Assembly: GCA_963789835.1 (NCBI GenBank)
Contig: CAWBMF010000003.1
Coordinates: forward strand, 441,068-505,067
Length of the DNA stretch: 64,000 bases
Direction of reading: 5' to 3'
Source of the DNA: an uncultured delta proteobacterium
GTDB lineage: Bacteria; Desulfobacterota; Binatia; Binatales; Binataceae
Made by a program: the position numbers and the translations under genes
Notes under the pieces: model-generated
Seen by the model: the letters and a program-made list of their open reading frames with translations, nothing else
Databases searched by the model: none
What the model was told of the DNA's origin: nothing
Shown: positions 4,845-27,517 of the stretch, in pieces
Layout of the letters: every line of letters starts with the position of its first letter
How positions within the stretch are numbered: position 1 is the first letter of the stretch

Positions 4845-5444
4845 TCAGCTGGGCGGTTGCTTATCCGGTGCCGCATCTCCGTCAAGCAAGCGCTGCAAAT
4901 GGCTGGAGGGAGATTCGTGCGCGGCGTGGCCGTCGTGCCCGGTATTCAAAGCGCAGGCCGGCGTGACGTGAGTCTGCGGCGGCTTGAACTCTGTGGGCAA
5001 CAAACGCTCGCGGGCTGCCCACTGATCGAAATTGCCGGGAGCGCTCGCCAGCAGGCGAAATCGCATACAGACAGTGTTGCAGCCACAACCGGAATCGCAA
5101 TTTCCGTGGAGCTCGCCGGGTGACTTGACGATCAGATCAAGTGGCCGCGTCTTACCGGGAAAGATGTCCACCGCGTCTTTCATTCCAGAAATCCAAAAGC
5201 TGTGGATCACGTCGGCGGAGGCGAGTTCAAGCCGCACATTCGTAGCAGTGGGAAGGTACAGTACATCGCTGGTCTTGATGCCGAGCGACGGGTAATCGAA
5301 TTCCCACCACCACTGATGCGCGACCGCCTTGACCGTGAGCGCAGGCCGGCTGTCGCCATCGACGATTCGAGCGACAGAGATCACTCCGGCGCAGATGCAC
5401 GCCAGACCGACGAGGGCTGCCACGAATGGCAAGGACGATTTCAT
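4845..5444 (-). CDS. cytochrome c oxidase subunit II-like cupredoxin domain protein (single N-terminal TM/signal, divergent CuA motif)
   Basis: HQWWWEFDYP and DVIHSFWIS match the COX2 cupredoxin core. Metal-site region reads HGNCDSGCGCNTVCM, where canonical COX2 reads CxExCGxxHxxM. Start overlaps the upstream SCO gene stop (ATGA). Confidence 0.6.
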   Translation of the reverse strand: MKSSLPFVAALVGLACICAGVISVARIVDGDSRPALTVKAVAHQWWWEFDYPSLGIKTSDVLYLPTATNVRLELASADVIHSFWISGMKDAVDIFPGKTRPLDLIVKSPGELHGNCDSGCGCNTVCMRFRLLASAPGNFDQWAARERLLPTEFKPPQTHVTPACALNTGHDGHAAHESPSSHLQRLLDGDAAPDKQPPS

Positions 5445-6172
5445 GCGCGCGCCGCCTGAAAGATAAGCGCTATGATGGCGCCGTCGGCGGCCGCAACCGG
5501 CTCGTGATCTACAGCCTTCTCGACGTCGCTCGCGACGCGGTCCGGCTCGGCCTTCTCGCCCATGTACTGCAGCAATGCTTTGCCGTTCGCATCGACCAGG
5601 AAGAACTCGAGAACATGATCGACGGTGCCGTCCGCTTCGTGCTTTCGAATCAGATCGAAATGCGCCATCACATCGTCGATCTGTTTTGGCGTTCCCGTAA
5701 GAAACAGCCAGCCATTAACGTCGGCGCCTTGTGCCTTCGCGTATGCGTTCAGCTGTGTAGGTTGATCGTGTTCGGGATCAACCGTGATCGACACGATGCG
5801 CGCTTCCGTTCCAAGCTTGGGCCCGAGTCGATTGGCAATCTGCTTCATCCGGCTCGTGAGGACGAGGCACGGTCCCGGACAGGTGGTGTAGATGAAATCG
5901 AACAGCACGGGTTTGCCCTTCAGCGAGGCCAGGGAAACGTTGTGGCCGTTCTGATCGACCAGCGTGATATCGGGCAAGCAGTCGGAGGCGTCGCGCACCT
6001 CGAATCCTCCACGCTCGCCGATGTCTGGTGCCTCTTGAGCCTGCTGGCGGCAACCAGTCAGCGTCACCGCGCCAACGAGCGTGATCAGCAGCGTCAGAAA
6101 TAAGCTTTTCCTGATTGACGAAACGGTTCGAGTAGAATTCATGGTACTTCTTTTTTTAATTCTCGCCGGCAT
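5441..6172 (-). CDS. SCO1/SenC-family copper chaperone/thiol-disulfide protein (lipoprotein)
   Basis: Thioredoxin-like fold with FIYTTCPGPC (CxxxC) and a downstream His. N-terminal lipobox LTGC. Alternative start MNSTR at ~6142 would remove the overlap with the upstream gene. Confidence 0.75.
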   Translation of the reverse strand: MPARIKKRSTMNSTRTVSSIRKSLFLTLLITLVGAVTLTGCRQQAQEAPDIGERGGFEVRDASDCLPDITLVDQNGHNVSLASLKGKPVLFDFIYTTCPGPCLVLTSRMKQIANRLGPKLGTEARIVSITVDPEHDQPTQLNAYAKAQGADVNGWLFLTGTPKQIDDVMAHFDLIRKHEADGTVDHVLEFFLVDANGKALLQYMGEKAEPDRVASDVEKAVDHEPVAAADGAIIALIFQAARA

Positions 6173-6620
6173 AATTTCTTCGGAGCGCCTCGCGTATCTG
6201 TTCGACCGGCGAGCCCTGCTCCGACAGTTGCTCCGCCATCAACGCCTCTCCGACGCAGATTTCGCACACCGAGGCGTGGGTGCCTCGATAACAATCGAGC
6301 AGATTCTGATGGCCGTAGGTCTTGTCGCATCCGCAATAGCAATGGAGTTGAGCGAGCAGCGCGGGATTCTTCTCCGCGACCTGGTACGCCTGCTTTACCG
6401 GACCGACGTACTGGTTAGGATCGAGCGTCAAGCGCCCCTGCGATCCGCTAGTGGCAACCGTTCCTGCAGTCGCCCGGCCCGCGCAGCAGCAATGGCCCCC
6501 AATGCACATCGCGCCGCGCGCACCGCCATTGTCCGCGATTGAGGCGCCGAACGCTGACCAGAGAAATGCCACTACCAGAACGGCCGCGGCCGAGGAGCCT
6601 AAAATAATTGCTCGCTTCAT
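6156..6620 (-). CDS. PCYCGC-motif protein (PF13798-like) with Cys-rich N-terminal segment
   Basis: HCYCGCDKTYGHQNLLDCY... motif. Signal/TM segment followed by CIGGHCCCAGR. Confidence 0.6.
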   Translation of the reverse strand: MKRAIILGSSAAAVLVVAFLWSAFGASIADNGGARGAMCIGGHCCCAGRATAGTVATSGSQGRLTLDPNQYVGPVKQAYQVAEKNPALLAQLHCYCGCDKTYGHQNLLDCYRGTHASVCEICVGEALMAEQLSEQGSPVEQIREALRRNYAGEN

Positions 6621-6630
6621 TCCGGCACTC

Positions 6631-7275
6631 TCAACTATGGCTCAGAGTTTTCTTAACGTCGTCGACGATGTCCTGCGCCTTGACGATCTGACCGTTGTAT
6701 TCTCGCACCAGCCGCCCATCCGGTCCAATCAGCATCATATTGACCAGGTGGCCGACCGAACCGTCCGGCTCGATTTCCCGGCTCAGCTTGAATCCGGCCA
6801 GCGCCTGATCGATGTCGCCGGGACCTCCGGTCAGGAAATACCATCCCTTCTCATCCGCCCCTTGCTGACGGGAGTAGTCGAGCAATTGCTTGGGCCCGTC
6901 ATGCTCGGGATCGACGGTGATCGAAACGAGCGTCACCTTCGATCCGAGATCGCTGCCGAGCCGCAGCGCGACGTTCGCAAATTTTGCCGTTTCCATCAGG
7001 CACGGTCCCGGGCATGACGTGTAGATGAAATCCACCACCAGTGGTTTGCCCTTGAGTGATGAGAGCTCAACCGTATTGCCATTCTGATCGACCAGCTTGG
7101 TGTCGGTGAGGACACTAGCGGGGCCATTCACGGTTGAGCCGCTGTGGCATCCAGCCGCTGTAAATAAGCTCGAAGCTACGGCCAGCACGATGCCGAGAGA
7201 TCTAAGATTGAAACTAATATTACTCATATCTGTCTCCGTCAAAAGCTGTAACTCAAGATCGTTTTGATCGCGCAA
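6631..7275 (-). CDS. SCO1/SenC-family protein (second copy)
   Basis: FIYTSCPGPC CxxxC motif. Paralogous to 5441..6172 (VDQNGxxVxLxSLKGKPxxxDFIYTxCPGPC). Confidence 0.75.
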   Translation of the reverse strand: MRDQNDLELQLLTETDMSNISFNLRSLGIVLAVASSLFTAAGCHSGSTVNGPASVLTDTKLVDQNGNTVELSSLKGKPLVVDFIYTSCPGPCLMETAKFANVALRLGSDLGSKVTLVSITVDPEHDGPKQLLDYSRQQGADEKGWYFLTGGPGDIDQALAGFKLSREIEPDGSVGHLVNMMLIGPDGRLVREYNGQIVKAQDIVDDVKKTLSHS

Positions 7276-7297
7276 GGCGCCACCAATACTCGCGGCT

Positions 7298-7672
7298 TCA
7301 TGGCGTCAGCGACCACGTCAGGACCGGGAGGGGGACCTTCCGATCGAGTGCTTCGGCGTTCTCATACATGGTGCGATCGTCCTCAGCGAGGGTCTCTCTT
7401 GCTTGATTCGAGTTGGCCACGCATTGAGACACATCGCGCTTGAAATACAGTGACTGGATTTCCAGCGGAGAGAGCGCGCCGAGAGGCATCACGACGTTGC
7501 TGGTTACAGCGTCGTCGCTCATCGCCGCTTCTTCGATGCACTTATCCTCGTTTTGATCGAGGCGCTGCTCAGCCTGTTCGAGGTTACTCTTTGCCGCGAC
7601 CGAGTTGTCCGGAGTTTGCGTTGCACAGCCGACGAGAAGAATCGCGATAATGGCGAAGACTCTCATCTTCAA
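7298..7672 (-). CDS. hypothetical lipoprotein
   Basis: Signal peptide plus lipobox (LLVGC). Acidic, coiled protein. Translationally coupled with the upstream TlpA gene (overlap at 7669-7672). Confidence 0.45.
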   Translation of the reverse strand: MKMRVFAIIAILLVGCATQTPDNSVAAKSNLEQAEQRLDQNEDKCIEEAAMSDDAVTSNVVMPLGALSPLEIQSLYFKRDVSQCVANSNQARETLAEDDRTMYENAEALDRKVPLPVLTWSLTP

Positions 7673-8103
7673 TGTCCCTGGCCCGCGTCGTGGGACGCCG
7701 CTCGTTCAGACAATAACGGCAGGACGGCCTTGCTCAGGCTTTGCTCAGTCAGAGGAGTTTCGTCGGGGGTCAGCTTAGCGCGAACAATACCCTGCTCGTC
7801 GACGATGTAAGTGATGGGGAGTTCGGTAGGATCGTTGAAGCCGTTGGATTCGCAATCGCGCAACATCGCTGCCGGGTAAGCGAAGGACTCCATCGTCTTG
7901 GCAACATCCGACCGTTCGTGCAGCCGATTAGCCGCCAGACCGATCATCTCGAGTCCCTTGTCGTGATAGCGTCGATAGAACGCGTCGAGCGTCGGCATTT
8001 CCGCCTGGCACGGAGGGCACCAAGTGGCCCAGAAGTTGACTACGACCACCTTTCCGCGTTGTGCGGCGAGATCAAAGGATTGGCCGTTCAACTCCTGGAC
8101 CAC
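7669..8103 (-). CDS. TlpA/ResA-like thiol-disulfide oxidoreductase (thioredoxin fold); N-terminus probably extends upstream
   Basis: VVNFWATWCPPCQAEMP motif. ORF track starts at a GTG (8101-8103). The same frame stays open up to ~8217 and encodes a signal-like NALAALVLLTISFAATSAC, but has no canonical start codon. Confidence 0.65.
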   Translation of the reverse strand: MVQELNGQSFDLAAQRGKVVVVNFWATWCPPCQAEMPTLDAFYRRYHDKGLEMIGLAANRLHERSDVAKTMESFAYPAAMLRDCESNGFNDPTELPITYIVDEQGIVRAKLTPDETPLTEQSLSKAVLPLLSERAASHDAGQGH

Positions 8104-8223
8104 AAGTGCCGGCGCCGCCTGGCCGATTTCTGCTCCGCCGAAAGCCTCGCACGCACTCGTAGCCGCAAACGAGATTGTCAGAAGAACGAGCGCCGCGAGT
8201 GCATTGCCGCATCTCGATCACCT

Positions 8224-9195
8224 TCAGAAGCTATAGCTGACGATCGTTTTGATCGCGTAAGGCGCCGACAACTGGTAGCCGTTCATGTTGCGAAATATCG
8301 GCAGCTCGACATCTGAGTACCACCTAATCGACTTGTACGCCGTCTCAAGACCAGGAGCGACTTGTATTCTGAAGTAACCACTATCGTGGGGATCTGAATT
8401 TGTCCCGCGGTCGTGGTTCCGGTCGCTGACCAGAAACGTCAGGAACGGCGCAAATTCCGTGAGATAACTGACCTTACCGAAATCGTAGTACGTCCCATAG
8501 CCTCCGTCGAACTCGTGGCCGGGCTTGTAATGGTCCTGATACGCGAACGGCTGATCCCACATGCCTTGCGCATAGTAGCCAAAGGGGCGATCTTCCAATT
8601 TCAGTATCGGAAGAGTGCCCATGTGGTAAGCGCCTATCAGCAGGTCGGTGCTGCCCGTTCCGATCTGAGTGTCACGATCCCACGGCGGGTAGTGCCAGTT
8701 GCCCGACGGAACCTTGAAACCGGCCAAGACACCGGTCGACATATCCTCCTGCAAGCCCGTCCACATGCCCAATATGCGGATGTCGCCTATCGAGTTCGAG
8801 TCGTACGACTTCACGTCATCGTTGTCGCCATTGTAGGCGCCTCGATAATTCCTCTCCCAGTAGGGCACTTCCAGCATCACGCCCCAGCTCCGATTGAACA
8901 TGTATTGCCCGCCGACGGTAACAAAGTTGGTCGCCAACTTCTTGTCGTTGTTGTACTGCCCCGAGGCTGGCCCCGTTGCGTGCCAGTTTATGTACTGGTT
9001 CATGAAGTCGTACTCGATCCACGCCATCGCACCAGCGCCCATAGGAAGCAGTGAGGGCGTCGCGACTTCGAACACCCCACATCCGCATGCGCACGCCCGA
9101 ACCATGCCAGGCGTTAGCCCCACAAATAGAACGGCGGCGACCAACAAGCGTCGAGCCGCGTTGGACAAAAGCACAAACTCAGAAATCCGTCTCAT
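8224..9195 (-). CDS. putative outer-membrane beta-barrel protein
   Basis: Signal peptide, Gly/Tyr/aromatic-rich alternating sequence and C-terminal ...IVSYSF (terminal Phe). Unusual N-terminal MRACACGCGVFE Cys cluster. Confidence 0.5.
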   Translation of the reverse strand: MRRISEFVLLSNAARRLLVAAVLFVGLTPGMVRACACGCGVFEVATPSLLPMGAGAMAWIEYDFMNQYINWHATGPASGQYNNDKKLATNFVTVGGQYMFNRSWGVMLEVPYWERNYRGAYNGDNDDVKSYDSNSIGDIRILGMWTGLQEDMSTGVLAGFKVPSGNWHYPPWDRDTQIGTGSTDLLIGAYHMGTLPILKLEDRPFGYYAQGMWDQPFAYQDHYKPGHEFDGGYGTYYDFGKVSYLTEFAPFLTFLVSDRNHDRGTNSDPHDSGYFRIQVAPGLETAYKSIRWYSDVELPIFRNMNGYQLSAPYAIKTIVSYSF

Positions 9196-9349
9196 CTAAC
9201 CTTCCCCCGGCGAACACCTAGTGGCGCGCCGTTACCTGAACGAAAAGCCTCGCGCCCTGATGCTCGTAACATCGGGCGCTCAAATCGGATTGCTTGTCGA
9301 ACGAAGCTTTTAGACTGAGTGCTTAGGGGGAGGAGTATCGGGAGCGACC

Positions 9350-9625
9350 TTAAAATCGATCGATTGCACCGATTTTGTCACGGTGGTCGAGCCCAGGTCG
9401 AAAAGAGCGAACTCTGGTAGAACTGTCGCTGGACGGGCAAGCAACATGTTCTGAGACCTGATCGAACATTTGAAGCGGCTGGCAAATGTTAACGGTCAGT
9501 TCTGGATGGCTCGGTCCGGAGACAATCACGAACCCAGCAGTCGAGGGAGCGCTTCCCAAGAACAACACGATCGCTAAGATTAAACTCAACGCCCGTAGGT
9601 CAGCCTTTGAAAACAAGCCCCGCAT
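9350..9625 (-). CDS. small membrane/secreted protein (paralog of 10675..11031), partner of DUF2318 gene
   Basis: MRGLFSKADLRALSLILAIVLFLGSAPSTAGFVIVSGPSHPELTVNICQPLQMFD. Near-identical N-terminal half to the 10675..11031 product. Confidence 0.4.
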   Translation of the reverse strand: MRGLFSKADLRALSLILAIVLFLGSAPSTAGFVIVSGPSHPELTVNICQPLQMFDQVSEHVACPSSDSSTRVRSFRPGLDHRDKIGAIDRF

Positions 9626-9639
9626 ACTGCAGTGCACCC

Positions 9640-10131
9640 TTAGAACAGTCCCCGCTCGCGTTCAAGATCGGCCGGGTTGATGTTGACGGTGTGGCCAGTC
9701 GTCTGGAACGGCAGTTTCACCGGCACACACGACACGAACCCGGACTCCATTGATTCCAACTTGTATCGAGTGCCGCAATATCTGCAGACGAGATACCCGT
9801 GTGAACTGGCGTAACCCTCGCCATACATGGAGCAGCGTCGGCACGCGTCGAAAGCTCCCTTAATCTTTCCAGTGGAGTCACGAGCTAGAAGAAACCGAAT
9901 CTGGTCGCCCGCCCGATCCTTGTATGAGAAGAAATGAACATCACCGGGCTGTAGGCTATCGGTTTCAATGCTTACGATCGGATTTGCGCTGACGGTGATG
10001 AATTGAGGACCCGTCGCCATCGCGACCAATGAGACTGCGACTGTCATGAAAGCAGCGGCAATCAACAGTCCAGTACGCCCTCGAAATCTGGTGATCGCGG
10101 AAGCCGTTTTTAAGGACCGCGGAATCTTCAT
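9640..10131 (-). CDS. DUF2318-like Cys-rich membrane protein (CxxC...CxxC)
   Basis: TM segment followed by FDACRRCSMYGEGYASSHGYLVCRYCGTRYKL...CVPVKLP. Start placed at internal MKIPRSLK to avoid overlap with the upstream YHS gene; the ORF could extend to 10233. Confidence 0.5.
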   Translation of the reverse strand: MKIPRSLKTASAITRFRGRTGLLIAAAFMTVAVSLVAMATGPQFITVSANPIVSIETDSLQPGDVHFFSYKDRAGDQIRFLLARDSTGKIKGAFDACRRCSMYGEGYASSHGYLVCRYCGTRYKLESMESGFVSCVPVKLPFQTTGHTVNINPADLERERGLF

Positions 10132-10180
10132 AGCGAACGTCCTACCGTGTGTCTCAGTTAGACTCGAGCCGCGCGACCGC

Positions 10181-10552
10181 TTAAGGTGCCGAGTTCGCGG
10201 CGGGCGTAATGCCTTCCGATAGATGCTTCGCAAGATACTTCTTGGGAGTTTTCACGAAAGCGTCGCGCTCCATGTCGTCGCAAAAGTAGTAATCCTTCCC
10301 ATCGAACGTGGCGGCTGGCGTATCGGACTTTACCGTAAGATGCATTCCGCAATACGCGCACATCGTCTTCTTTCCAACGTCACTGGCTGGCGCTTGCGAA
10401 AGAACGCTTGCGATCTCAGGCGAAGCCGCGCGAGCGGAACCTGAGAAGTAGAAAAAGCCACTCAGAACCACCGACATCGTCGCGATTAAGACGATGGCCT
10501 TGTTTCTATGCAGTGCACTGCTCTTTCGTATCTCGGCTGATGTGAAATTCAT
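10181..10552 (-). CDS. YHS-domain-like metal-binding protein (membrane-anchored)
   Basis: N-terminal TM segment. MCAYCGMHLTVKSDTPAATFDGKDYYFCDDMERDAFVKTP resembles the YHS/TRASH CxxCGM motif. Confidence 0.5.
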   Translation of the reverse strand: MNFTSAEIRKSSALHRNKAIVLIATMSVVLSGFFYFSGSARAASPEIASVLSQAPASDVGKKTMCAYCGMHLTVKSDTPAATFDGKDYYFCDDMERDAFVKTPKKYLAKHLSEGITPAANSAP

Positions 10553-10674
10553 CTTTTATCTCCCGTCGCAATGAGCCGACTGACGCGACAATTCACCTGA
10601 AACGAAAAGCCTTGCGCCGCGCCATCCGCGGCGTCGGGCGCGCAAATCGTAATCAGGTTGTCGAACGGAACTAT

Positions 10675-11031
10675 CTAGACGGGTAGCTTTGGCGGCGGCG
10701 TGTCGGGAGCGAAGCGAAAATCGACCGGTCGCCCAGCCATCTTGACAACGGTCAAGCCCAGGTCGCGCAGAACGAACTCGGGCTGTACCGTCGCAGGTCG
10801 GGCAAGCAAGGTGTTCGACGCACGGTCGAACATTTGAAGCGGCTGGCAGATGTTGACGGTCAATTCAGGATGACTCGGTCCGGAGATAACGACGAACCCT
10901 GCCGTCGAAGGGAAGCTGGCCAACAACATGACGATGGCCAGGATTAAACTCAGATCTCGAAGATCCGACTTTGAAAACATGCGTCCCATTTCTTCTACAG
11001 ATCTCTTAGAACAGTCCTCGCTCATGTTCAA
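10675..11031 (-). CDS. small membrane/secreted protein (paralog of 9350..9625)
   Basis: MFSKSDLRDLSLILAIVMLLASFPSTAGFVVISGPSHPELTVNICQPLQMFD. C-terminal tail diverges from the other copy. Confidence 0.4.
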   Translation of the reverse strand: MNMSEDCSKRSVEEMGRMFSKSDLRDLSLILAIVMLLASFPSTAGFVVISGPSHPELTVNICQPLQMFDRASNTLLARPATVQPEFVLRDLGLTVVKMAGRPVDFRFAPDTPPPKLPV

Positions 11032-11039
11032 GATCGACG

Positions 11040-11419
11040 GGCTTGATGTCGACGGTGTGCCCGGTCATCCGAAATGGCAATTTCACGGGCACGCATGATC
11101 CGCGCCCGGATTCCATCGCATCCAACTTGTACCGATTGCCGCAATATCCGCAGACGAGGTCCCCGTGTGAACTGTCATAGCCCTTCCGATACATCGAGCG
11201 CCGTCGAATTCCTTGCCTGGCACATAGAGGTCGCTGTGCAGAAACGGATATTCGTACTGAACCTGCGCGTACCAGTTGATGGGCCGCTCCCACAAGGTGA
11301 GGTTGAAGTTGCCAATCCGGTTCGGAAGCGACCCTGTGTGTGGCGAATTGTTGATTTTGGCAGAACCGGAAGCCGGAGTGCAGACTTGCTAACGGTCCCC
11401 ACTCTCCCAAGGACAGCAA
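11040..11419 (-). pseudogene. degenerate DUF2318 paralog fragment fused to an outer-membrane-protein-like remnant
   Basis: The last ~65 aa (RRRSMYRKGYDSSHGDLVCGYCGNRYKLDAMESGRGSCVPVKLPFRMTGHTVDIKPVDLEHERGLF) align with the C-terminus of 9640..10131. The first CxxC and the TM region are lost. An overlapping frame (11083..11295) reads like the C-terminal strands of a beta-barrel protein. Confidence 0.4.
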
Positions 11420-11504: not shown

Positions 11505-14500
11505 CTACTTGGGGCATACTCCCGTCGTGTTCGGTTGCGTCGAGTAGAGGCATTGTGCGCCAGCTATAGTTGAGTTTTGGAGATTGTAGTTGACGTTCCA
11601 TTGGAACGGATTATCAGGATTCATTGCGTTGAATGGCGACGGCATCGGCCGCTCATCGCGATCATCGGCAACGAAGCACTTATCCTTCTCGTTGGGACCG
11701 CACGCGGCAGGAAAGGTTATCTGGAAGGCCGGACAACCCGGTGCCGGGCAGTCTACAAACTGGGGAGGGCAGCCGGCTGGATTCGTACAGTTAAGAGGGA
11801 AAGGCTGAATCGACCAATCGCAAACGGTCTGACCCAAGGGATTCGTTTGTTTGCAAATGCTCGCATAGGGGCCACTCGGATTGCACTGACACCGTTCGGC
11901 GCTCTGACTCCAGGTACACATAGTAGCTGGTTGGCAATAACGCTTACCCAGTGAAACGGGAGGTTTCGTGTTCGCGGCCGTTGCATTTAAGCTATAGTTA
12001 CCAGCGATCTGGGAGAAATTGGTGCTAAGTGTCAGGATGCCCGAGCTAGGAGTATACTTAGCCGTCCATGCGCCACTCATGACATCTTTGACTGGGGCTG
12101 GAGTGAAGTTAAACGGCAGGGTTAAACCTTCGTAGCCGAAGACTACATTGGTTGCGGCGAAGTCTTTGTTGTCCTTTGTCGGTATATTCTTACCCACGAA
12201 CACCTGGTAGGTCTGCTGCGTGTCCTGCTTCGAGAAGAGAAAGAAAAGATCGTAGACGCTCCCGCCAGTAAAAACATTGAAACTTTGGAAAGGTGGGACC
12301 GCGTTCGCCTGGCTCTTCCTCGAGACCGTCGTGTTGAGGTAGTAGGCGCCGTGATTGACGGTCAGAGCGCTGCGCTGGAAATTGTTCTGCCCCATCATCC
12401 GCTTCAATTGGATATCGGGATCTGTTTTTTCTCCCGGCGTGAGTAGTTGTCGATAGAGCTGTACGCCGGGGCATCCGAAGTTGGGAGGTGACGCCGTACA
12501 GACGCTGCCCCAGTTGTCGTCGTTTGGACAAAAACTGGGAGCTCCACTCTCAGGAGGCGGCGGAGCCAGCTTTGCGCATTCAGGATAGATCACCGTACTT
12601 ACATATTCGTAGGGGCTGGTTTTCGCGGTAGCGGGCAAGCACTTTGGAGCATAAGTACTGGCATTTGTCGGATAATCCGAAGCGCATTCCCAGGCTTCGG
12701 TCGGAGCCTTGAAGAAATCCGCCTTGTTGACCGAGATTGTGTCGTACTGGGTGCTCATACTTGGGGTTGGTGTCGCTGTTGGTACGGGAGGACCCACCGG
12801 GCTGGTCAAGCCGGTCAGCGTGCCGTCATCGTCGTTCAACACCGTCTCTCGATCGATGTCGGTAAAGCCTTGGAAGTATGCTGGATTCCAAGTGCAGTAT
12901 TCTTTTTTCGTCGCGTCCTCGTCGGTTTTGAAGCTCAAGGGGCCCTTTAGGAAGCTTGGGTCGGTGACAAAATGGCGGATGTCGACGCCGTTGAAGTACA
13001 GATTGAGCGAATGAAACGCGGGCGCGTAGTAAAAGCCGTTGGGCTGTTTCCATCCAATCCCTGCGTTGGGCTCAAAGCAGCGAGCGCCACCAGCGATCGG
13101 CATGTCCTTCGCGTCGAGCGGCCGGTAAGCGCGCAGGCCATTGACCCCGCCACTAATGAAACCCGCAAACTGACAGGGATTGCCGGCGACGCTGCTAGGC
13201 TCACACTTGCCGCCCTTGGTATCCAGCACCGCGCCTTTGGCAGTTCCGTCGGCGGTCAACCAGGTAGGGTGAATGTCGAGATAGGCGTTGGAGTCCTGAA
13301 AAATGGGACCGTCGTAAACGCTGAAGAGCCGCTGAAAGCCTGCGAAGGCGCCTACCTGAAAGTTCACGCCATCTTTCTGCGATAGACAGAATGCATTGTT
13401 AGAATTTCCGTTGAAGGGATCGAGGGCGCAGGTCAATCCAGTGATTTTACTGTTCTCGCCTGTTCCAATCGTGGCCTTAAATGGATTGAAAGGTCCGGCG
13501 TTGGACGCGTAGGGATTCGCGGCGAGAGCGCTGTTATTTGGATTCTGCCATTGAGAACTCCCGATGAGCGCAGATTGCCGCACCAACCCCCAATAACCGG
13601 GAAATACAGAAGCAGCGTCGTAACCGCCACTGGTTACGAAATTGACTCCGGCGTTCTGCGGATCGCTGATGATGCTGTCAACTGCCAACGACCACAGCGA
13701 TCTCATCCAGACGGCGGCGAAGTTGCCCTCCGCCCAGTTGAACGAGGTCGTAAACCCGTTGAGCACGACCACGTCGCAATTGGCTTGATTCGCCGATGCG
13801 CAGATGGGGACGGTTGAGCAGTCGGGGTTGGTGTTGCCATTGTCAGCCGCCGGACAGCGCGTCGGCAGACGCAGGCCGGTGACCTGAGGCCAGTAAGCAG
13901 TGCCGGAGGGCGGCGGAGCCTGGGGTGAGGGCACCATCAGAAGCGTAGAGTTTGGAGCTTTCAGGAAACTCGGATCAATCTGGTTGACGCCGTTGCAAGC
14001 GGCTAGAGCGCCGACCTCGACAAAGCCTTCCATTGCCGTGCTACAGGAGTTGCCGACGAAGTTTTGCAGCGGGCTGATGCCGGCCCGTCCTATGCCGACT
14101 TGCTCGCCGGCGTATCCGTACCATTTCTCGGTCTGCGAAGGGCCGCTAATCGCTCCCGGCACCAGCCAGTAGCAGGCGCCGCACTCGCCGGCGCCGGCCG
14201 CCATGTTGTACTGGAAGTCATTCATGCCGTTCATGATCCAGAACACTGACGGATTTTGTGAGTCCGAGTAATAAGGAAGGGTGCTATATCCGCTGACACA
14301 AAATTGAGGAGTCTCTTTTGTACAGCAATTTGGAGGGTTGCCCGTACAGGTTGGCGCAGTAGCCGTCAGGATACCTGGAACCATGCGCGGATTCTGCGGA
14401 TTGGCGTCGGCCGCCGTTAAGCCATTGGCCACTGCGCCGCGCGCGAAAGCGCCGAGATTGGCGTACAGCTGATTGCCGGTCTCGGTGCCGTCCTCGAGAT

Positions 14501-15902
14501 AATAGCCGTGACCGATCGACTCGAAGCCTACATTGCGCGCCAGCCGGACGCCCTGGGTAGCATGAATCGTTATCCAGCGCGTCATTGAATCCCATATCGA
14601 AGAGTCCTTGACGAAGGTGATCGGCTGGGTCGCGCCTATCCCTGGCACCTGGCGGTCCATGTGGAAGTGCACCGGGTAGTGCATGATGCTGCCGCCCTGG
14701 CCGAGTTGATAGAACTCGACGCCCTGCACCTGGTAAAGCAGGAAGCCCTGACGCACGATAGTGTGGCCGCCGAAATAGTTGTCGGGATTTCCCGGATCGA
14801 CTGTGAACTCCGAGCCCGGCGTATCGCCGTCGGAAACAACCCGGATGTTGCGCGACAGCAACCCCACCGAGGCGCGCAGATCGCCCGAGGTAGGGAAGTT
14901 CGGCCCAAGACGCGATATGCCGGGGAAGGTCGCGTTGGACAGGTCGAATAGTTGCCCATTGTGCGGATACTGGACCGCGGTGAGGAGTGGAATCGTCGTA
15001 ACCCCGCCGCTGGTAGTGGGCGTACCATTGATATTCAGGTGCTCCGAATGCCCAGGCAGATAGTCGGTGGTGGTCAGTACGATATCGTCGCCGTTTTGCC
15101 AATCCACTGCGCCAGCAACCTGCAGGCTCGTATCGCCGGGCAGCGCATTCTTATTCAAGCGAACCCAGCTGGTCCCGGTGCACGAGGAACTATTTTCCAT
15201 GCATCCGGTCGCGGACGTGCTGCCATAGGTTGCGCCTTTCGCGCCGAACATTTGTAGCGTGCCGTTGTAAGACACCGCCAGCACCTTGTGCCCAAAATAG
15301 GCGGTGGGGTTGTTCGTCTGATCCGCCGGGTCCAGTGCGTCATAGTCGTAGAAGCAGTCGCTAACGCCACCTGGCAGCGCAGACGGCTTGCACGTAGCTG
15401 GATTCATCGAGCGCGTATTGGTTCCCAGGGGAGGGCTCGGGATGCCGCAGTTGGCGGACGCACAGGTAACCCCGGGATCGCCCGGCGCACCCCACAGATG
15501 AATTGTCACCAGGCCGCCGTTGGTTCCGATCGGGGTTTCAGAGCCCGCGATTAAAGCGCCGCCGCTCTCGACGACGATGTTCTCCGCGTAGAAGTCGATC
15601 TGCGCGTCATCGAAGGTCAAGATGCCTTTACTGCCACCTGAAGTAAAAATGTTGACGTTGTGGAAGTAGTAGGTGAGAGAGGGGACGCTGGCGGAGCCCT
15701 TTACCTCGCACGGACCGGTGACCTGGAGATCGGTGGTGGCGCCGGCAGACATCTCGTTGGGCATCAACGGCATGTCCGCCGTGTCGTTACAGGTCACCAC
15801 CGTAGCCATTGCGGGGCTGGCGAAAAGTACGAACAGCATCGATAAGATCAAGCCGGAAAGTGAAAGCTTATTGGAGCATTCGATTCGAGACTTTATCGAC
15901 AT
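11505..15902 (-). CDS. very large secreted Cys-rich protein (1465 aa), function unknown; possible beta-helix / G8-like carbohydrate-active fold
   Basis: Signal peptide (LILSMLFVLFASPAMA), many Cys and Gly/Asn-rich repeats, and a central YPVHFHMDRQ motif. Long uninterrupted frame. Confidence 0.55.
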   Translation of the reverse strand: MSIKSRIECSNKLSLSGLILSMLFVLFASPAMATVVTCNDTADMPLMPNEMSAGATTDLQVTGPCEVKGSASVPSLTYYFHNVNIFTSGGSKGILTFDDAQIDFYAENIVVESGGALIAGSETPIGTNGGLVTIHLWGAPGDPGVTCASANCGIPSPPLGTNTRSMNPATCKPSALPGGVSDCFYDYDALDPADQTNNPTAYFGHKVLAVSYNGTLQMFGAKGATYGSTSATGCMENSSSCTGTSWVRLNKNALPGDTSLQVAGAVDWQNGDDIVLTTTDYLPGHSEHLNINGTPTTSGGVTTIPLLTAVQYPHNGQLFDLSNATFPGISRLGPNFPTSGDLRASVGLLSRNIRVVSDGDTPGSEFTVDPGNPDNYFGGHTIVRQGFLLYQVQGVEFYQLGQGGSIMHYPVHFHMDRQVPGIGATQPITFVKDSSIWDSMTRWITIHATQGVRLARNVGFESIGHGYYLEDGTETGNQLYANLGAFARGAVANGLTAADANPQNPRMVPGILTATAPTCTGNPPNCCTKETPQFCVSGYSTLPYYSDSQNPSVFWIMNGMNDFQYNMAAGAGECGACYWLVPGAISGPSQTEKWYGYAGEQVGIGRAGISPLQNFVGNSCSTAMEGFVEVGALAACNGVNQIDPSFLKAPNSTLLMVPSPQAPPPSGTAYWPQVTGLRLPTRCPAADNGNTNPDCSTVPICASANQANCDVVVLNGFTTSFNWAEGNFAAVWMRSLWSLAVDSIISDPQNAGVNFVTSGGYDAASVFPGYWGLVRQSALIGSSQWQNPNNSALAANPYASNAGPFNPFKATIGTGENSKITGLTCALDPFNGNSNNAFCLSQKDGVNFQVGAFAGFQRLFSVYDGPIFQDSNAYLDIHPTWLTADGTAKGAVLDTKGGKCEPSSVAGNPCQFAGFISGGVNGLRAYRPLDAKDMPIAGGARCFEPNAGIGWKQPNGFYYAPAFHSLNLYFNGVDIRHFVTDPSFLKGPLSFKTDEDATKKEYCTWNPAYFQGFTDIDRETVLNDDDGTLTGLTSPVGPPVPTATPTPSMSTQYDTISVNKADFFKAPTEAWECASDYPTNASTYAPKCLPATAKTSPYEYVSTVIYPECAKLAPPPPESGAPSFCPNDDNWGSVCTASPPNFGCPGVQLYRQLLTPGEKTDPDIQLKRMMGQNNFQRSALTVNHGAYYLNTTVSRKSQANAVPPFQSFNVFTGGSVYDLFFLFSKQDTQQTYQVFVGKNIPTKDNKDFAATNVVFGYEGLTLPFNFTPAPVKDVMSGAWTAKYTPSSGILTLSTNFSQIAGNYSLNATAANTKPPVSLGKRYCQPATMCTWSQSAERCQCNPSGPYASICKQTNPLGQTVCDWSIQPFPLNCTNPAGCPPQFVDCPAPGCPAFQITFPAACGPNEKDKCFVADDRDERPMPSPFNAMNPDNPFQWNVNYNLQNSTIAGAQCLYSTQPNTTGVCPK

Positions 15903-16011
15903 TGGCGATCTCTCCCCAGATCGTAGTGCCCGCGAGGTTTGCGTTGTTGAGAATGAACTAATATAACGCGGCAGAATATATCAAGCGTTCAGTCGACGAC
16001 AGAAACAAAAA

Positions 16012-18012
16012 ATGAACGATGCTGCGATGAAGATTGCACGCGACTGCGGGACCATACTCCCACTGATTCTTGCTCTGCTAGTGGGATCGTTGGTGCTTAG
16101 CGGATGCGGTGGTGGATCGAGTTCAAACTCGCAAGAGCATCGACGGCCGACGCCGACCGCCACGCCCACGCCTCCGCCCCCGGGCATCGTCGGCTTTCTA
16201 GTTGGCGGTTCACCGTCGGTTGGCAGTCCAATCAGCGGGGCCGTGATTACCTTGTATCAGGCGAGCGCGAGCGGCTATGGCACGGGAGCGCTCCAGCTCG
16301 CGCAGGTAGATTCACAATCCGACGGCAGCTTCAGCGTCTCGTCGTTCACGTGCCAGACTACGGGCTATTCGCAACAGATTTACCTGGTCGCGACCGGCGG
16401 CACGATTAGCGGTCAAAGCAACGCCAACCCAGCTATCGCGCTGGGCGCGGGCATCGGCACGTGCACCAACTTTGCTCACTCAGTGGTCATCAATGAAGCG
16501 ACCACAATTGCGACAGTCTGGGCGCTGGATCAGTTCATGGATCCGACCGGGCAAAACGTCGGGACGTCGGCGACCAACCAGACCGGGCTCAACAACTCCG
16601 CAACCGCGATGAGCTCGGACAGCTTCGTCGACCTGAGCACCGGGCTTGCACCAACGTCGTTTCCGGACGGGCTTACCTCGCCCACCGCCACACTATATTC
16701 ATTGGCCAACATATTGTCCGCATGTGTAAATTCGTCCGGCGAAAGCTCCGCCGGCTGTCAAAATCTGTTCAGCGCGGCGACTCCGCCTGGTGGCGTCGCG
16801 CCTACAACCACAGTGCAGGCGGCGCTGGACATCGCGCGCAATCCAGTCAACAACGTCAGCGCCCTGTTCGCGTTGATACCAGCCAGCCCGCCTTTCTCGC
16901 CGGGTCTGACTTCGGCGCCGGCAAGTTGGGTACTGGCGCTCAATTACGCGCCTGCAAGCGCCGATTTCAAATCGCCGTACCAAATCGCTTTAGATGCAGC
17001 CGGCAACGTTTGGGTAGTGAACGCCAGTGGCGACAGCGTCACCGAATTGATCGGCGCAAGTGGCTACACGACGGCACTGGAATTCGCACCCTCCGGCGCC
17101 GATCTGAGCTTCCCGGACTGGCTCGCCTTTGACGCGGCGGGCAACTTATGGGTGGCGAATCTGAACAGCAACAGTATTAGTGAACTGACAGCCACGAGCA
17201 ATTACTCGACTGGCTTTAATTTCGCGCCGGCGGGTGCGGTCCTAAGCAATCCTCTCTCGATCGTTTTCGATGCCGCCGACAACCTTTGGGTGGCGAACTT
17301 TGGCGGCGACAGCGTCAGTGAATTGCTGGCCGGATGCTCCAGCGCGACTTGCACCGGGACAAATTTTAACAACTCGAACACCGGCAGCCCCGGCGCCCTA
17401 TTCAGCAGTCCCAGCTCAATCATTGCCGACGTGGCCGGCAATCTGTGGATTACGAACTTCGCCGGCAATAGTGTCACCGAATTGCTGACAGGATGCTCCA
17501 GCACAGCTTGCACCGGCGCCAATTTCAATAGCAGCAACACCGGCAGTCCTGGCGCATCGTTTGCCGCGCCGCTCGAGGTTGAGGTCGACGGTGCTGGCAA
17601 TATCTGGGCGGTAAATTCCAACGGCAACAGCTTGAGCGAACTACCCGCAGGCTGCACTCTCGCCAGCTGTACCGCCGGAAATTTCAACAACTCAAATACC
17701 GGTAGCCCTGGTGCAATTTTCAGCGGTCCCAACTCGCTTGCAATCGACTCCAGCGCGAACATCTGGGTCGAAAATCTATCCGGCAACAGCGTGAGTGAGC
17801 TGACCGCGTCGAGTAGCTACGCGACCGGCTTCAACTTCGGACCCTGGCCAATAGCTTATGCGCAGTTCTCAATCGCGGCCGATGCGTCGGGCAACCTCTG
17901 GATAGCGAATAACTACGACGACAGTGTAAGCGAGGTGGTGGGTGTCGCAACTCCTATACTCACTCCTTCGCTAGCCTGCCTTCAGCTTGGCCGTAACGTG
18001 TGCCTGCCGTAG
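16012..18012 (+). CDS. NHL-repeat (beta-propeller) lipoprotein
   Basis: Lipobox LVLSGCGGG, then a Pro/Thr linker, then ~8 tandem ~45-aa repeats of the type FxxPxxIAxDxxGNLWVxNxxxNSVSELxA. Confidence 0.6.
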   Translation: MNDAAMKIARDCGTILPLILALLVGSLVLSGCGGGSSSNSQEHRRPTPTATPTPPPPGIVGFLVGGSPSVGSPISGAVITLYQASASGYGTGALQLAQVDSQSDGSFSVSSFTCQTTGYSQQIYLVATGGTISGQSNANPAIALGAGIGTCTNFAHSVVINEATTIATVWALDQFMDPTGQNVGTSATNQTGLNNSATAMSSDSFVDLSTGLAPTSFPDGLTSPTATLYSLANILSACVNSSGESSAGCQNLFSAATPPGGVAPTTTVQAALDIARNPVNNVSALFALIPASPPFSPGLTSAPASWVLALNYAPASADFKSPYQIALDAAGNVWVVNASGDSVTELIGASGYTTALEFAPSGADLSFPDWLAFDAAGNLWVANLNSNSISELTATSNYSTGFNFAPAGAVLSNPLSIVFDAADNLWVANFGGDSVSELLAGCSSATCTGTNFNNSNTGSPGALFSSPSSIIADVAGNLWITNFAGNSVTELLTGCSSTACTGANFNSSNTGSPGASFAAPLEVEVDGAGNIWAVNSNGNSLSELPAGCTLASCTAGNFNNSNTGSPGAIFSGPNSLAIDSSANIWVENLSGNSVSELTASSSYATGFNFGPWPIAYAQFSIAADASGNLWIANNYDDSVSEVVGVATPILTPSLACLQLGRNVCLP

Positions 18013-18696: not shown

Positions 18697-20292
18697 TTAT
18701 GGCTCGAGGCAAAAGACTGGTCCCGGAGCACAGCCCCACCCGCTGAGTTCGTCCCACCAGATGGCTGTTTCTGTCGAGCTTCCAAAAATTTCAGTAGAAG
18801 TTTCTGAACTCCAGTCATCACAGGTATCCGTGAGATTTCCTCTCAGGTTCGGAGCTGTCGAGCCGGTGGACGGGTTCTGATCAAAGACTGTGGAATAGGT
18901 GCCGTCCGCGTGTTGCCAGATGCCGCTGCTGATGGCGCCCATTGCCAGCGAGGGAGCGTCGGCGATTTTGATCCCATCGGGACGCACGAACGGCTTCGAC
19001 CCCACGGTCATGTCGAAGCGTGAAGCTGCGGACGCTGTAGAAGTCGATAGCAGCGCCATAAAGGTGTCGGCATTTGCGAGCCCTGCGCTGGATGCTTCTG
19101 TTTGGCAGATCTTATCGGCCATCGCGATACCAGTGGATGGATCGAGATCTGTTTTCGATACGAAAGCGACTCGGCCGGAAACCGGTGTGTATGTCAGCTG
19201 CTCCGCATGAGACGTATCGAAGCAATAAAGATGCAATTGTTCGTTGTCATTGCAGCCAAAGGCTTCGTTGTCGTCGCTCCACTGGGCCGGGCCGCCGTCG
19301 AAGTGGCCGCTCTCGCCAAATTCTCCGCCGGAAATCGAGGTCCAGTCGTTGCAGGTTCCGTAAGGGCTTAAGGTCCCGGCGTTGGTCGAGCCGGTCCACA
19401 CATCTGAGTTCTCCGCTTCGCGTATGTCGTTGCCGGATTCATCCAGGTCGATGGGGTTCAGGATCTTGCCGGATGTGAGATCTGACGCCTGATCTGCAAT
19501 CGGTGCTCCATCGACCCGAACAAACGCGCGCGCACTTCCGAGCCTGCTAACTGCATCCACTGTCGAGGTCGAAAGCCACGCCTTGTAGGTTCCGGTGGGA
19601 AGCCCTGCATTGTTGGCCAACATCTGGCACGCCGAATCTGCGCCACTTATGCCCGTGCCGTCGATACTGCCGTCATAAACTTGAGAAGTCACGAATACCA
19701 CGTTAACCCCTGGCGAGGGCGTGGCAGTTGGTGTCGCGGTGGATGTTATCGTCGGAGTCGCAGTAGGCGTTGCCGTTGCCGTGGCAGACGCCGTTGCGGT
19801 TTCGGATGCTGTCGCCGTCGGAGTCGCAGTCCCCGTCGGCGTGGCAACCGCCGCGATTCCGATCCCTATCAGCTTCACCTTCTGTGGTTTCCTGACGCCC
19901 GCTTCGGTGAACCTCAACAGCCCATGTTTGAATTCGCCCTTCTTGAGCGGCACGAATGCCACCGAGACGCTGCAAGTGCCGCCCAATGCTGCGATCACGC
20001 CCTTGCATTCGTTGTCTTCGATCGCGAAGCCTGCGCTGATACCCACCGCCGGCGCAGCCAACTCGACGCTGCCGTTATTCGTCAGTGTGACTGTTTGCAG
20101 CGCGCTCATTAATCCCGCCGGCACTTTGCCGAACGTCAGTTTCTTCGGAGATAGTGCGACCGGCCGCTTACTGATCGACGAAATCACAGATTGTGCCGAG
20201 GCGAGGCGGGCCGCCGCAGACAAAATTACGCAAACACCCGCAACTGCTCCGATTCCCCATCTGGCGAGACGGGCAAAGGCGAACTTGAACAC
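18697..20292 (-). CDS. secreted protein with Thr/Ala/Pro linker and two tandem Cys-containing domains
   Basis: Signal peptide, an Ig-like N-terminal domain, a TPTGTATPTATASETATAS... linker, then two homologous modules (ADSACQMLANNAGLPTGTYKAWLSTSTVDAVSRL... and ADKICQTEASSAGLANADTFMALLSTSTASAASRF...). Confidence 0.55.
   Translation of the reverse strand: MFKFAFARLARWGIGAVAGVCVILSAAARLASAQSVISSISKRPVALSPKKLTFGKVPAGLMSALQTVTLTNNGSVELAAPAVGISAGFAIEDNECKGVIAALGGTCSVSVAFVPLKKGEFKHGLLRFTEAGVRKPQKVKLIGIGIAAVATPTGTATPTATASETATASATATATPTATPTITSTATPTATPSPGVNVVFVTSQVYDGSIDGTGISGADSACQMLANNAGLPTGTYKAWLSTSTVDAVSRLGSARAFVRVDGAPIADQASDLTSGKILNPIDLDESGNDIREAENSDVWTGSTNAGTLSPYGTCNDWTSISGGEFGESGHFDGGPAQWSDDNEAFGCNDNEQLHLYCFDTSHAEQLTYTPVSGRVAFVSKTDLDPSTGIAMADKICQTEASSAGLANADTFMALLSTSTASAASRFDMTVGSKPFVRPDGIKIADAPSLAMGAISSGIWQHADGTYSTVFDQNPSTGSTAPNLRGNLTDTCDDWSSETSTEIFGSSTETAIWWDELSGWGCAPGPVFCLEP
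19715..19865 (-). repeat. low-complexity Thr/Ala/Pro-coding tract (GCx/ACx codon repeats) inside the 18697..20292 CDS
   Basis: Plus strand reads gtcgcagtaggcgttgccgttgccgtggcagacgccgttgcggtttcggatgctgtcgccgtcggagtcgcagtccccgtcgg... Confidence 0.6.
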
Positions 20293-21058: not shown

Positions 21059-22414
21059 TCAACAACCCGGCACATTGGTGCAGTTATCGGGCTGGTTGTT
21101 TCGCACGGGGCTGTCCTTGAAGCTCACAACGCCGCTGAAGACGTAGATGCCGCCACCGTCGGTGCTGGCAGTGTTGTCACTGACACGGCTTCCTTCCAGC
21201 GTCAGGGTCCCGTCGTCGGTGATGACGATCCCTCCGCCCAGCCCGCCGATCGGGCCGCTGGCGATGTTCTGAGAGACCCGACTGCGATCCAGGCGCACCG
21301 AACCACCGAATACGGCCAACCCACCGCCCTTTTGGCCGGTGGTGGTTGAGACAGCTTGATTTTCATCTATGGGACTATTTATCAGGGTTAGCCTGCCCCT
21401 ATCATTGGCGACCCCGCCGCCGTCGACGCCTGAGACGTTTTGAGCGATTGGACTGTTGGTTAATTCCGCGCTGGCGTCGAAGCCATTGTTTAGACCGCCG
21501 CCAGTGAGTGATGCCGAGTTACCGCGAATCTGGGTAGATGTAACCGAGACGGTGCCGCCGAGATTGTTAATGCCGCCCCCGATATCGGCCGTATTGCCAG
21601 CGATCAAACTGTTCTTCACGGTCATGGTCGGATTGTTGCGCACCGATGCCATGCGGTTGTTATCGAGCCCGCCGCCACCGGCTAGAGAGCCCTCTGTCGT
21701 GTGGTTGTCGACAATGCTGCAGTGGTTCACTTCAAGTTGACCTTGATTCTCGATGCCGCCTCCACCGCCGGCGGTCCCCACTATTTGGTTGCCACTTATT
21801 ATAGAGTGACTCAGGTACGCTATGCCGAAGTTGCGAAGGCCGGCCCCTGCCGCAACCGGGGGAGTCGGTGGAGGTGGAGGGGGCGGAGGTGGAGGCGGAG
21901 GCGGAGGTATCGTGGCTTCGTTGTCAATTACCTTGCAACGAATCAGCGTGAGCGTTCCATCGACGTCGTTGGCGATGCCCCCAGAAGCCTCTTGCCCTAC
22001 GTTTTGGCTGACGGTCACGTCGATAAGCTTCAGGGTGCCGTGATTCAGTATCCCGCCGGCAGCCAGACCTTTACCATTCGTGATGGTCACGCCGCTGATG
22101 GTTACGTCGTAATCGGTATCAACCTCCAGCACCAAGTCCTGCTGGTTTCCATCGACGATCGTCGTGAGCGCGCCCGAACCCTGCAGGGTTAGTCGCTTGG
22201 CCGCAGTGGGTGGGAGGATGCGCGGAGTCTCGGTGTAGGTCCCCGGAGCAATCTTGATGGTGTCACCTGTCTGGGCGGCGTCAATAGCGGCCTGGATGGT
22301 TGAGTATGGACAGCCATTGGCGCAGACGCGCAACTTGCCAGCCAAGGCGGTCGACGGGCGAATCCCTACGACAGCGATTGCCGCAACTAGAAGCATGACG
22401 AAGCGCATCCGCAT
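21059..22414 (-). CDS. secreted right-handed parallel beta-helix repeat protein with internal poly-proline tract
   Basis: Signal peptide MRMRFVMLLVAAIAVVG...ALA and CANGCPYSTIQAAIDAAQTGDTIKIAPGTY (pectate-lyase-like cap). Repeated NxxxxGGG(I/L)xN units. Central PPPPPPPPPPPPPPTPP. Confidence 0.6.
   Translation of the reverse strand: MRMRFVMLLVAAIAVVGIRPSTALAGKLRVCANGCPYSTIQAAIDAAQTGDTIKIAPGTYTETPRILPPTAAKRLTLQGSGALTTIVDGNQQDLVLEVDTDYDVTISGVTITNGKGLAAGGILNHGTLKLIDVTVSQNVGQEASGGIANDVDGTLTLIRCKVIDNEATIPPPPPPPPPPPPPPTPPVAAGAGLRNFGIAYLSHSIISGNQIVGTAGGGGGIENQGQLEVNHCSIVDNHTTEGSLAGGGGLDNNRMASVRNNPTMTVKNSLIAGNTADIGGGINNLGGTVSVTSTQIRGNSASLTGGGLNNGFDASAELTNSPIAQNVSGVDGGGVANDRGRLTLINSPIDENQAVSTTTGQKGGGLAVFGGSVRLDRSRVSQNIASGPIGGLGGGIVITDDGTLTLEGSRVSDNTASTDGGGIYVFSGVVSFKDSPVRNNQPDNCTNVPGC
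21838..21905 (-). repeat. GGN/CCN trinucleotide tract encoding a 14-Pro run
   Basis: Plus strand ggaggtggagggggcggaggtggaggcggaggcggaggt. Minus-strand translation PPPPPPPPPPPPPPTPP. Confidence 0.7.
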
Positions 22415-27249: not shown

Positions 27250-27517
27250 GCGTATGGATGAAAGATGCGGCGAATGTTGACTCGGAAATGGCGCGGCACT
27301 TCAAGTCTGGGATTAGACATCGACCACTCTTCCTTGGCGGCGCGCTCCTGTAAATCAGACCTTGGTCTGATTCGCCCCACGCGCCCGGTTAAAACTCGTT
27401 TTAATACTGAATGAAGTCGGTTGGCGATTCTTGTAACGCATTTGCGGCGTTGTCGTACGGACCATGGTCGGATATTGCATCCGACCGATATATGCAATCC
27501 TTTTAACCGAGGAACTG

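Follow-up and report, generated by a model that had tools for sequence, protein, structure and literature searches.

The human proteins CEMIP (also called HYBID or KIAA1199) and its paralogue TMEM2 (CEMIP2) have central roles in the turnover of hyaluronan and in cancer invasion, arthritis and deafness, and recessive polycystic kidney disease involves mutations in the related G8 modules of fibrocystin. Animal CEMIP and TMEM2 carry two lectin-like GG domains of the POMGNT1/ILEI type, of which GG-1 is inserted in the beta-helix and is needed for hyaluronan degradation (PMC12423501, PMC10206443). Intrinsic catalysis by TMEM2 is a matter of dispute, with no active site yet assigned (PMC10206443 and PMC10276149 versus PMC10474455), while the cofactor reported for TMEM2/CEMIP is Ca2+ (PMC10474455). 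The same module of G8 plus parallel beta-helix occurs in fibrocystin (PKHD1) and PKHD1L1 (PMC13424714), which are very large receptor-like proteins of many domains, among them IPT, PA14 and SEA, and are likened here by description only. In this study, we analysed a 64,000-nucleotide stretch of contig CAWBMF010000003.1 from an uncultured delta proteobacterium of the Binataceae (assembly GCA_963789835.1; the whole stretch is hereafter the window), and specifically a predicted exported protein of 1465 amino acids (aa) encoded in it, which we identify as a bacterial relative of these animal proteins. Our literature search found no publication on bacterial G8/CEMIP-like members, and no bacterial-enzyme paper citing the structure of the TMEM2 ectodomain (8C6I).

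Family, fold and export of the 1465-aa protein

The 1465-aa protein clearly belongs to the G8 / CEMIP-TMEM2 beta-helix family (PF10162 and PF24606). The Pfam model CEMIP_beta-hel (PF24606) matched aa 376-623 over model positions 1-207 of 212 (E=3.3e-40; 138.6 bits against a cut-off of 27.3), and the G8 model (PF10162) matched aa 93-138 over model positions 39-83 (26.2 bits against a cut-off of 22.9). When aa 140-345 were scanned alone, the second half of G8 (model positions 88-116) reappeared at aa 195-223 with 13.7 bits, and therefore an insertion of ~55 aa splits this domain; TMEM2 aligns weakly to both segments. Among all PDB sequences, the sole relative was the human TMEM2/CEMIP2 ectodomain (8C6I; E=2e-21 for the sequence alone, 4e-40 for the family profile), with which the bacterial protein shares G8 and the core residues of the beta-helix. 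The preliminary description of this protein had stated that no family could be assigned from sequence alone. In its Cys-rich tail (aa 1323-1465), no known fold or family was matched. An NCBIfam scan of the 1465-aa protein gave no meaningful match.

The structure was predicted as two overlapping pieces, each with 109-sequence alignments, and the models reached a predicted local distance difference test score (pLDDT) of 90.2 and a predicted template-modelling score (pTM) of 0.93 for aa 34-1200, and 86.5 and 0.89, respectively, for aa 1001-1465. In the model, beta-strands begin at residue 35, and G8 lies N-terminal to and is continuous with the beta-helix. The overall order is that of the TMEM2 ectodomain, with a long right-handed beta-helix followed by a beta-sandwich that is probably the counterpart of TMEM2 'domain X'. 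Homology to TMEM2 extends over approximately the first 620 aa by sequence and over ~690 + 230 residues by fold. Clear full-length homology to a well-characterised enzyme family had been named as the finding that would overturn the description of a protein of unknown function; what we obtained lies halfway, as the coverage is partial and the matched family is not well characterised in mechanism, the catalytic status of TMEM2 being disputed (PMC10206443, PMC10276149, PMC10474455).

After TMEM2, the closest fold matches were mostly enzymes, and the matches included the Vag8 passenger domain, a phage pectin-lyase-like protein, an alginate lyase, AlgG, AlgE4, PL6 lyases, NosD, GH87 and GH28. Only the fold is shared with AlgG/AlgE, PL6, GH28 and NosD. 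Specifically, AlgG (4NK8), AlgE4 (2PYG), PL6 lyases and a Paenibacillus alginate lyase (6KFN) show 7-13% identity and lack the G8 segment and domain X, and the DPH(D/E) catalytic motif of AlgG/AlgE is absent from the 1465-aa protein, which speaks against membership among AlgG/AlgE-type epimerases or related lyases. Membership in GH28 was also rejected, given that there is no NTD and no RIK motif, only a GHG (aa 464) and one GDD (aa 271) that lies outside the core. NosD (7O0Y), a beta-helix protein of the periplasm that belongs to the NosDFY maturation system, is 10% identical; assignment as a NosD-type maturation factor is not supported because no nosF/nosY ATP-binding cassette (ABC) genes, nosZ or nosL adjoin the gene in the window or its homologues in 82 loci from other genomes (two of which, L001 and L010, are the same contig region). 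An autotransporter beta-helix adhesin such as Vag8 does not fit either, as there was no autotransporter Pfam match and the C-terminus is Cys-rich with little regular secondary structure.

Compared with TMEM2 and CEMIP, the bacterial protein is without the GG-1 and GG-2 domains and without a transmembrane anchor, but has the insertion within G8, a Cys-rich C-terminal region of ~140 aa and a lipoprotein partner gene. No GG/ILEI-type lectin domain was matched in sequence-level Pfam scans of the whole protein (E<=1) or of its sub-regions (E<=10). For this reason, neither 'hyaluronidase' nor 'CEMIP orthologue' is a suitable name for the protein, despite the designation 'cell migration-inducing and hyaluronan-binding protein' that homologues carry in JGI ('G8 domain-containing protein' in NCBI). 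Nor would hyaluronan be expected as a substrate for carriers of the family, which are bacteria of soil, peat and sediment.

The gene is a single uninterrupted open reading frame (ORF) of 1465 aa plus stop, as originally described, and lies on the minus strand, which had not been stated, with its ATG at 15902 and its stop codon at 11505-11507. Its G+C content (57.1%) is close to that of the window (58.8%), and the gene is therefore not foreign-looking. The signal peptide claimed earlier was also recovered: by inspection, the N-terminus MSIKSRIECSNKLSLSGLILSMLFVLFASPAMA, followed by TVV, has the K/R-containing start, the hydrophobic LSLSGLILSMLFVLFA and the SPAMA end (cleavage before T) of a Sec-type signal peptide. 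This is the sole hydrophobic segment of the whole protein, and together with the conserved paired Cys it points to an extracytoplasmic location for what is predicted to be a Sec-exported protein.

Two alignments were used for conservation, one of 50 sequences (Binataceae, Terriglobia, NC10, Sorangium) and one of 109 sequences from several phyla. Across the 50 sequences, 33 Cys are conserved in >=94%. Cys 171 and Cys 183 are both present in 41 sequences and both missing in nine, with neither ever found alone, and Cys 1372/1378 and 1401/1409 are likewise gained or lost strictly as pairs. Disulfide-bonded pairs in an exported protein would be expected to behave in this way, and the 1465-aa protein appears to be heavily disulfide-bonded. 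The count of Cys is 47 (46 in the mature protein), not over 60 as first estimated. Of the other sequence features in the preliminary description, the YPVHFHMDRQ motif stands at aa 409-418 and the Cys-dense C-terminal string CTWSQSAERCQC (CTWSQS...) at aa 1329. The reported Gly/Asn/Thr-rich beta-type repeats hold in composition (rich in Gly, Ala, Pro, Thr, Ser and Asn) but not as sequence repeats, as self-BLAST at E<=10 returned the identity match alone; these 'repeats' are the structural rungs of the beta-helix. RTX/HemolysinCabind repeats (PF00353) occur in a few family members (P0092, P0099, P0116), which suggests that some lineages use type I secretion and lends support to an extracellular role.

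Conserved residues and a candidate functional site

Nine of the 16 His are invariant in the 50-sequence alignment (H285, H314, H408, H412, H414, H447, H465, H964 and H977), along with R417, D433, R442, R456, E470, D471, E474, N477, N482, D1017, R1018, D1024 and D1026. The polar residues among these at aa 408-482 form our candidate functional site (Table 1), and nearly all of them are invariant in the 109 sequences as well. By profile alignment, human TMEM2 keeps (in bacterial numbering) H314, H380, H412, H414, R442, H447, H465, E470, D471, E474, N477 and N482, and is without H408, R417, R456 and the C574-x-x-C577 pair. Invariants specific to the bacterial proteins in comparison with TMEM2 thus comprise H408, R417, R456, C574-x-x-C577, H964, R976/H977 and the DDDG loop (aa 1024-1027).

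Other eukaryotic relatives were compared as exon-sized fragments. Divergent fragments keep H412, H414, R442, H447, H465, E470, D471 and E474, and TMEM2-/CEMIP-like fragments (~40% identity to TMEM2 at the lowest) keep YP[VI]H[FWY]H, R..T[IV]HG, GH, LEDG.E and FW. The core pattern of the bacterial beta-helix (YPxHxH, R..T.HG, GH, LEDG.E, FW) therefore recurs in alignment both to TMEM2 and to the eukaryotic fragments. To anchor the TMEM2 numbering we used its unpaired Cys554 (Niu et al.), and the resulting offset makes TMEM2 H550 and H552 the counterparts of the two histidines of the bacterial HFH.

In the predicted structure, strands 411-418 (VHFHMDRQ), 444-450 (ITIHATQ) and 467-469 (YYL, then ED) lie on successive rungs of one stacked sheet. 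Inward orientation of F413, I446 and L469 would leave H412/H414, H447 and Y468/E470 facing outward in a ladder. One of the two TMEM2 loops said to block the usual active-site region, 627-662 (PMC10206443), corresponds to the long loop that follows the polar set in the bacterial protein (aa 489-550), in which conserved residues are also found. The second most conserved stretch is the acidic DIDRETVLNDDDG, which was one of the two peptide patterns taken as most conserved for the locus search, and its loop is possibly a Ca2+-binding one.

Homologues and the adjacent lipoprotein gene

The protein collection yielded more than 1000 homologues, the majority being full-length (~1240-1530 aa) with 40-80% identity, so that the reading frame is far beyond chance. 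Among representative genomes of 185,579 species, 420 stretches encode a relative, and carriers include Binataceae, other Binatia, Terriglobia, Thiocapsa roseopersicina, T. marina, Paludibaculum fermentans, Methylotetracoccus oryzae, Dadabacteria and a metagenome-assembled genome (MAG) of Burkholderiales; Sorangium and NC10 were among the matches in the protein collection. A search with aa 340-1040 against 1.84 billion cluster representatives returned 278 matches at E<=1e-30, 1580 at E<=1e-10 and 3153 at E<=1e-3. The closest relatives are from MAGs labelled Binataceae or 'uncultured delta proteobacterium'. Several MAGs have two paralogues (L012/L057, L015/L036, L022/L070, L028/L042, L064/L074), and in the Binatia-type pairs L012/L057 and L015/L036 one copy only adjoins the lipoprotein gene described below.

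The divergent arrangement with an NHL-propeller lipoprotein gene noted earlier holds, with a spacer of 109 bp in which no consensus promoter was called. This gene was the only one among 19 window genes around the ORF to recur in the 82 loci (tblastn). It is the immediate neighbour in 21 of them and is always adjacent when present, either upstream and divergent, the arrangement seen in the window (11 loci), or downstream in the same orientation, mostly with a gap of 16-91 bp that implies co-transcription. With a hidden Markov model of the partner, 23 NHL-type ORFs were detected in all flanks, of which 22 are the adjacent gene. Partner identity falls with the identity of the main protein, from 70% to 22-34%, as co-inheritance as a module predicts. 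The occurrence in 21 loci and in two gene orders thus supports the link to the lipoprotein that had been suggested from the window.

All-against-all clustering of 1383 flanking ORFs found no other conserved neighbour, the NHL family alone recurring; the next flanking family was present in nine loci and not adjacent. Charged residues are scarce in the NHL partner (only 2 His, 2 Lys and 5 Arg), and apart from the structural NHL pattern none of its conserved positions looks catalytic. Its interpretation as a lactonase or lyase was dropped on these grounds. The NHL-propeller lipoprotein is part of a very large paralogous expansion in Binatia (>1200 matches), many members of which are automatically named 'streptogramin lyase' and some of which are fused to Ig-like or choice-of-anchor D domains.

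Proposed function, alternatives and surrounding genes

On balance, and with limited confidence, we consider it probable that the 1465-aa protein is a secreted beta-helix enzyme that cleaves or modifies glycans and works with the NHL lipoprotein. This proposal starts from the observed family, fold, export signal, paired Cys, invariants common to animals and gene linkage. As an extracytoplasmic carbohydrate-active enzyme, the protein would cleave or modify a polysaccharide, most plausibly an anionic exopolysaccharide, by hydrolase, lyase or epimerase chemistry. The substrate would be handled in the groove of the beta-helix, where outward residues on successive rungs could form the binding and catalytic centre (H412/H414, H447 and Y468/E470/D471, with H465, E474, D433 and R442 nearby and possibly a bound metal), over which the long conserved loop of aa 489-550 would lie. 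In the Binataceae lineage and some others, the protein would act together with the adjacent NHL lipoprotein, for which a role in tethering or presenting the enzyme, or its substrate, at a membrane is more likely than one in catalysis, because it has almost no charged or catalytic-looking conserved residues. We infer, in this proposal, the surface exposure of the residues, the catalysis, the substrate class and the partner role.

Our arguments need to be read with caution considering several points on the other side. Enzymatic activity has been demonstrated for no bacterial member and is disputed even for TMEM2 (PMC10206443, PMC10276149, PMC10474455). The catalytic motifs of known beta-helix enzymes are missing (no DPH[DE], NTD or RIK), as is GG-1, required for hyaluronan degradation by the animal proteins (PMC12423501). 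The clustering in an exposed groove depends on strand register and inside/outside alternation in the model, and the His ladder could instead be structural. Across the 82 loci there are no conserved neighbours for sugar transport, catabolism or exopolysaccharide synthesis, and 61 of the 82 homologues have no NHL gene beside them, among them the two closest (L010 and L014, at 77% identity).

The alternative that survives best is a non-catalytic binder, adhesin or scaffold, surface-bound, periplasmic or secreted, in which the beta-helix would be a rigid platform. Parallels for such a platform are the adhesins Vag8 and PfbA, or TMEM2 itself if it is solely a regulator or translocation component. 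Against this stands the very strong conservation of polar residues (His, Asp, Glu, Arg, Asn) across Binatia, Acidobacteriota, Proteobacteria, Myxococcota, NC10 and animals. Adhesins evolve fast, and such conservation is unusual for them. No autotransporter barrel, sortase signal or other anchor was found, and the predominance of enzymes among the closest fold matches after TMEM2 also argues against a platform role, which we regard as unlikely. The preliminary description had left the choice between a large extracellular hydrolase, an adhesin and a binding protein; the hydrolase is the most plausible of the three, and an adhesin or binding protein is less likely because the polar residues are invariant.

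A metal-dependent role, either as an oxidative polysaccharide-cleaving enzyme with a metal on the His ladder or as a NosD-like factor for metal or sulfur trafficking to which the adjoining copper genes would be related, appears quite improbable to us, given that genes of the copper locus lie near a homologue in none of the 82 loci, that there are no adjacent NosF/NosY-type ABC genes (ABC ATPase ORFs occur in six loci, all 2.5-7 kb away), that the His set is common to animal TMEM2/CEMIP, which act in hyaluronan turnover with Ca2+ as the reported cofactor (PMC10474455), and that the CxxC is not common to TMEM2.

A further-reaching extension of the glycan-enzyme proposal, which we put forward as speculative and rather doubtful, is that the bacterial proteins represent the ancestral, self-sufficient catalytic form of the G8/CEMIP/TMEM2/fibrocystin group. 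The His ladder with E470/D471/E474, possibly with a metal, would be the active site under the loop said to obstruct the groove in TMEM2, and a membrane-tethered partner (the NHL lipoprotein) would be required. If true, this would explain why soluble animal ectodomains look inactive. Independently of this extension, a compact bacterial version that is without the lectin domains and keeps the beta-helix, probably domain X, the invariant His and acidic residues and a linked partner could be an easier system in which to address the disputed function of CEMIP/TMEM2, and it indicates which residues to mutate. The basic chemistry could be approached in a prokaryotic protein, with homologues available from cultured Thiocapsa, Paludibaculum, Methylotetracoccus and Sorangium. 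For microbial ecology, the family is an uncharacterised secreted one that recurs in Binatia and in peat and soil Acidobacteriota.

Table 1 Features of the 1465-aa protein, its gene and the surrounding genes (window positions; aa, residue numbers of the 1465-aa protein)
Feature	Position	Strand	Basis
Coding sequence, 1465-aa CEMIP/TMEM2-like G8 beta-helix protein	11505..15902	-	ORF list, translation, full-length homologues
Ribosome-binding site GGGGAGAG (GGAGAG), 7 nt 5' of ATG	15910..15917	-	direct sequence reading
Signal peptide, aa 1-33, predicted cleavage between AMA and T	15804..15902	-	inspection; AxA consensus in homologues
G8 part of helix, with insertion	aa ~34-225		predicted model and Pfam
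G8 domain, two parts (aa 93-138, aa 195-223), first beta-helix turns	15234..15626	-	Pfam PF10162, weak TMEM2 alignment
Small beta-sandwich insert	aa ~246-306		predicted model
CEMIP-type right-handed beta-helix core, aa ~340-640 in model (position of Pfam-matched aa 376-623)	14034..14777	-	
Invariant polar set H408, H412, H414, R417, D433, R442, H447, R456, H465, E470, D471, E474, N477, N482 (aa 408-482)	14457..14681	-	candidate functional site
C574-G-A-C577 motif (C574 invariant, C577 98% conserved in bacterial family; both missing in TMEM2)	14172..14183	-	
Further beta-rich region	aa 640-1000		predicted model
Acidic stretch DIDRETVLNDDDG (aa 1015-1027)	12822..12860	-	conservation
Domain-X-like beta-sandwich (aa ~1050-1300)	12003..12755	-	matches TMEM2 ectodomain
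Cys-rich C-terminal region (aa 1323-1465), nine Cys >=80% conserved	11508..11936	-	
Divergent intergenic region, 109 bp, shared with NHL lipoprotein gene	15903..16011	.	
Partner gene, 666-aa lipoprotein, lipobox LSGC, N-terminal domain and NHL/Vgb-lyase-like beta-propeller	16012..18012	+	Pfam, sequence
BacA/UppP	2077-2934	+	
SbmA/BacA-like ABC transporter	3017-4771	+	
COX2-like cupredoxin	4845-5444	-	
SCO1 (two)	5441-6172, 6631-7275	-	
PCYCGC-motif protein	6156-6620	-	
Trx/AhpC-like protein	7669-8103	-	
Outer-membrane protein (OMP)-like protein	8224-9195	-	
FtrD-like proteins (two)	9640-10233, 11006-11419	-	
YHS-domain protein	10181-10552	-	
721-aa VWA-domain protein	23429-25594	-	
YkuD L,D-transpeptidase	26265-27497	-	
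GAF histidine kinase with LuxR-type response regulator	28120-30140	+	

The copper/thiol-redox cluster lies directly downstream of the ORF on the same strand (4845-11419, minus), in the position originally described. A functional link to it had been implied and is not borne out: in the tblastn comparison of the 19 neighbouring proteins, the FtrD-like, YHS, SCO1, OMP-like and COX2-like genes do not recur beside homologues, and we rejected the association as coincidental. The only proteins of the cluster with any match were the Trx-like protein and the SCO1/redoxin ORF 5441-6172, both in the same two loci (L045, L050). Between the ORF and the downstream FtrD-like ORF, neither a terminator nor a stable hairpin was found (z=0.44), and therefore co-transcription with the copper cluster may occur in this organism.

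Two other minus-strand ORFs of the window do not recur near homologues, namely a 531-aa protein with an Ig-like (HYDIN/VesB-type) domain and DUF1554 (18697-20292) and a 459-aa ORF with no Pfam match (21059-22438). In cultured species (Thiocapsa, Paludibaculum, Methylotetracoccus) the neighbours are heterogeneous and include a CLC channel, MlaD, DUF4874/DUF4832, a sulfotransferase and an aldehyde dehydrogenase. Both Thiocapsa genomes have an ORF of ~170 aa, without a Pfam match, directly after the homologue (L060 14156-14668; L065 14107-14628), which may be a lineage-specific partner. At the locus of the 77%-identical homologue (L001 14626-16440, L010 14584-16440) the NHL gene is absent, and ~180-220 bp past the homologue there is a membrane protein of ~600 aa with DCC1-like and LMF1 (lipase-maturation-factor/HTTM-like) domains.

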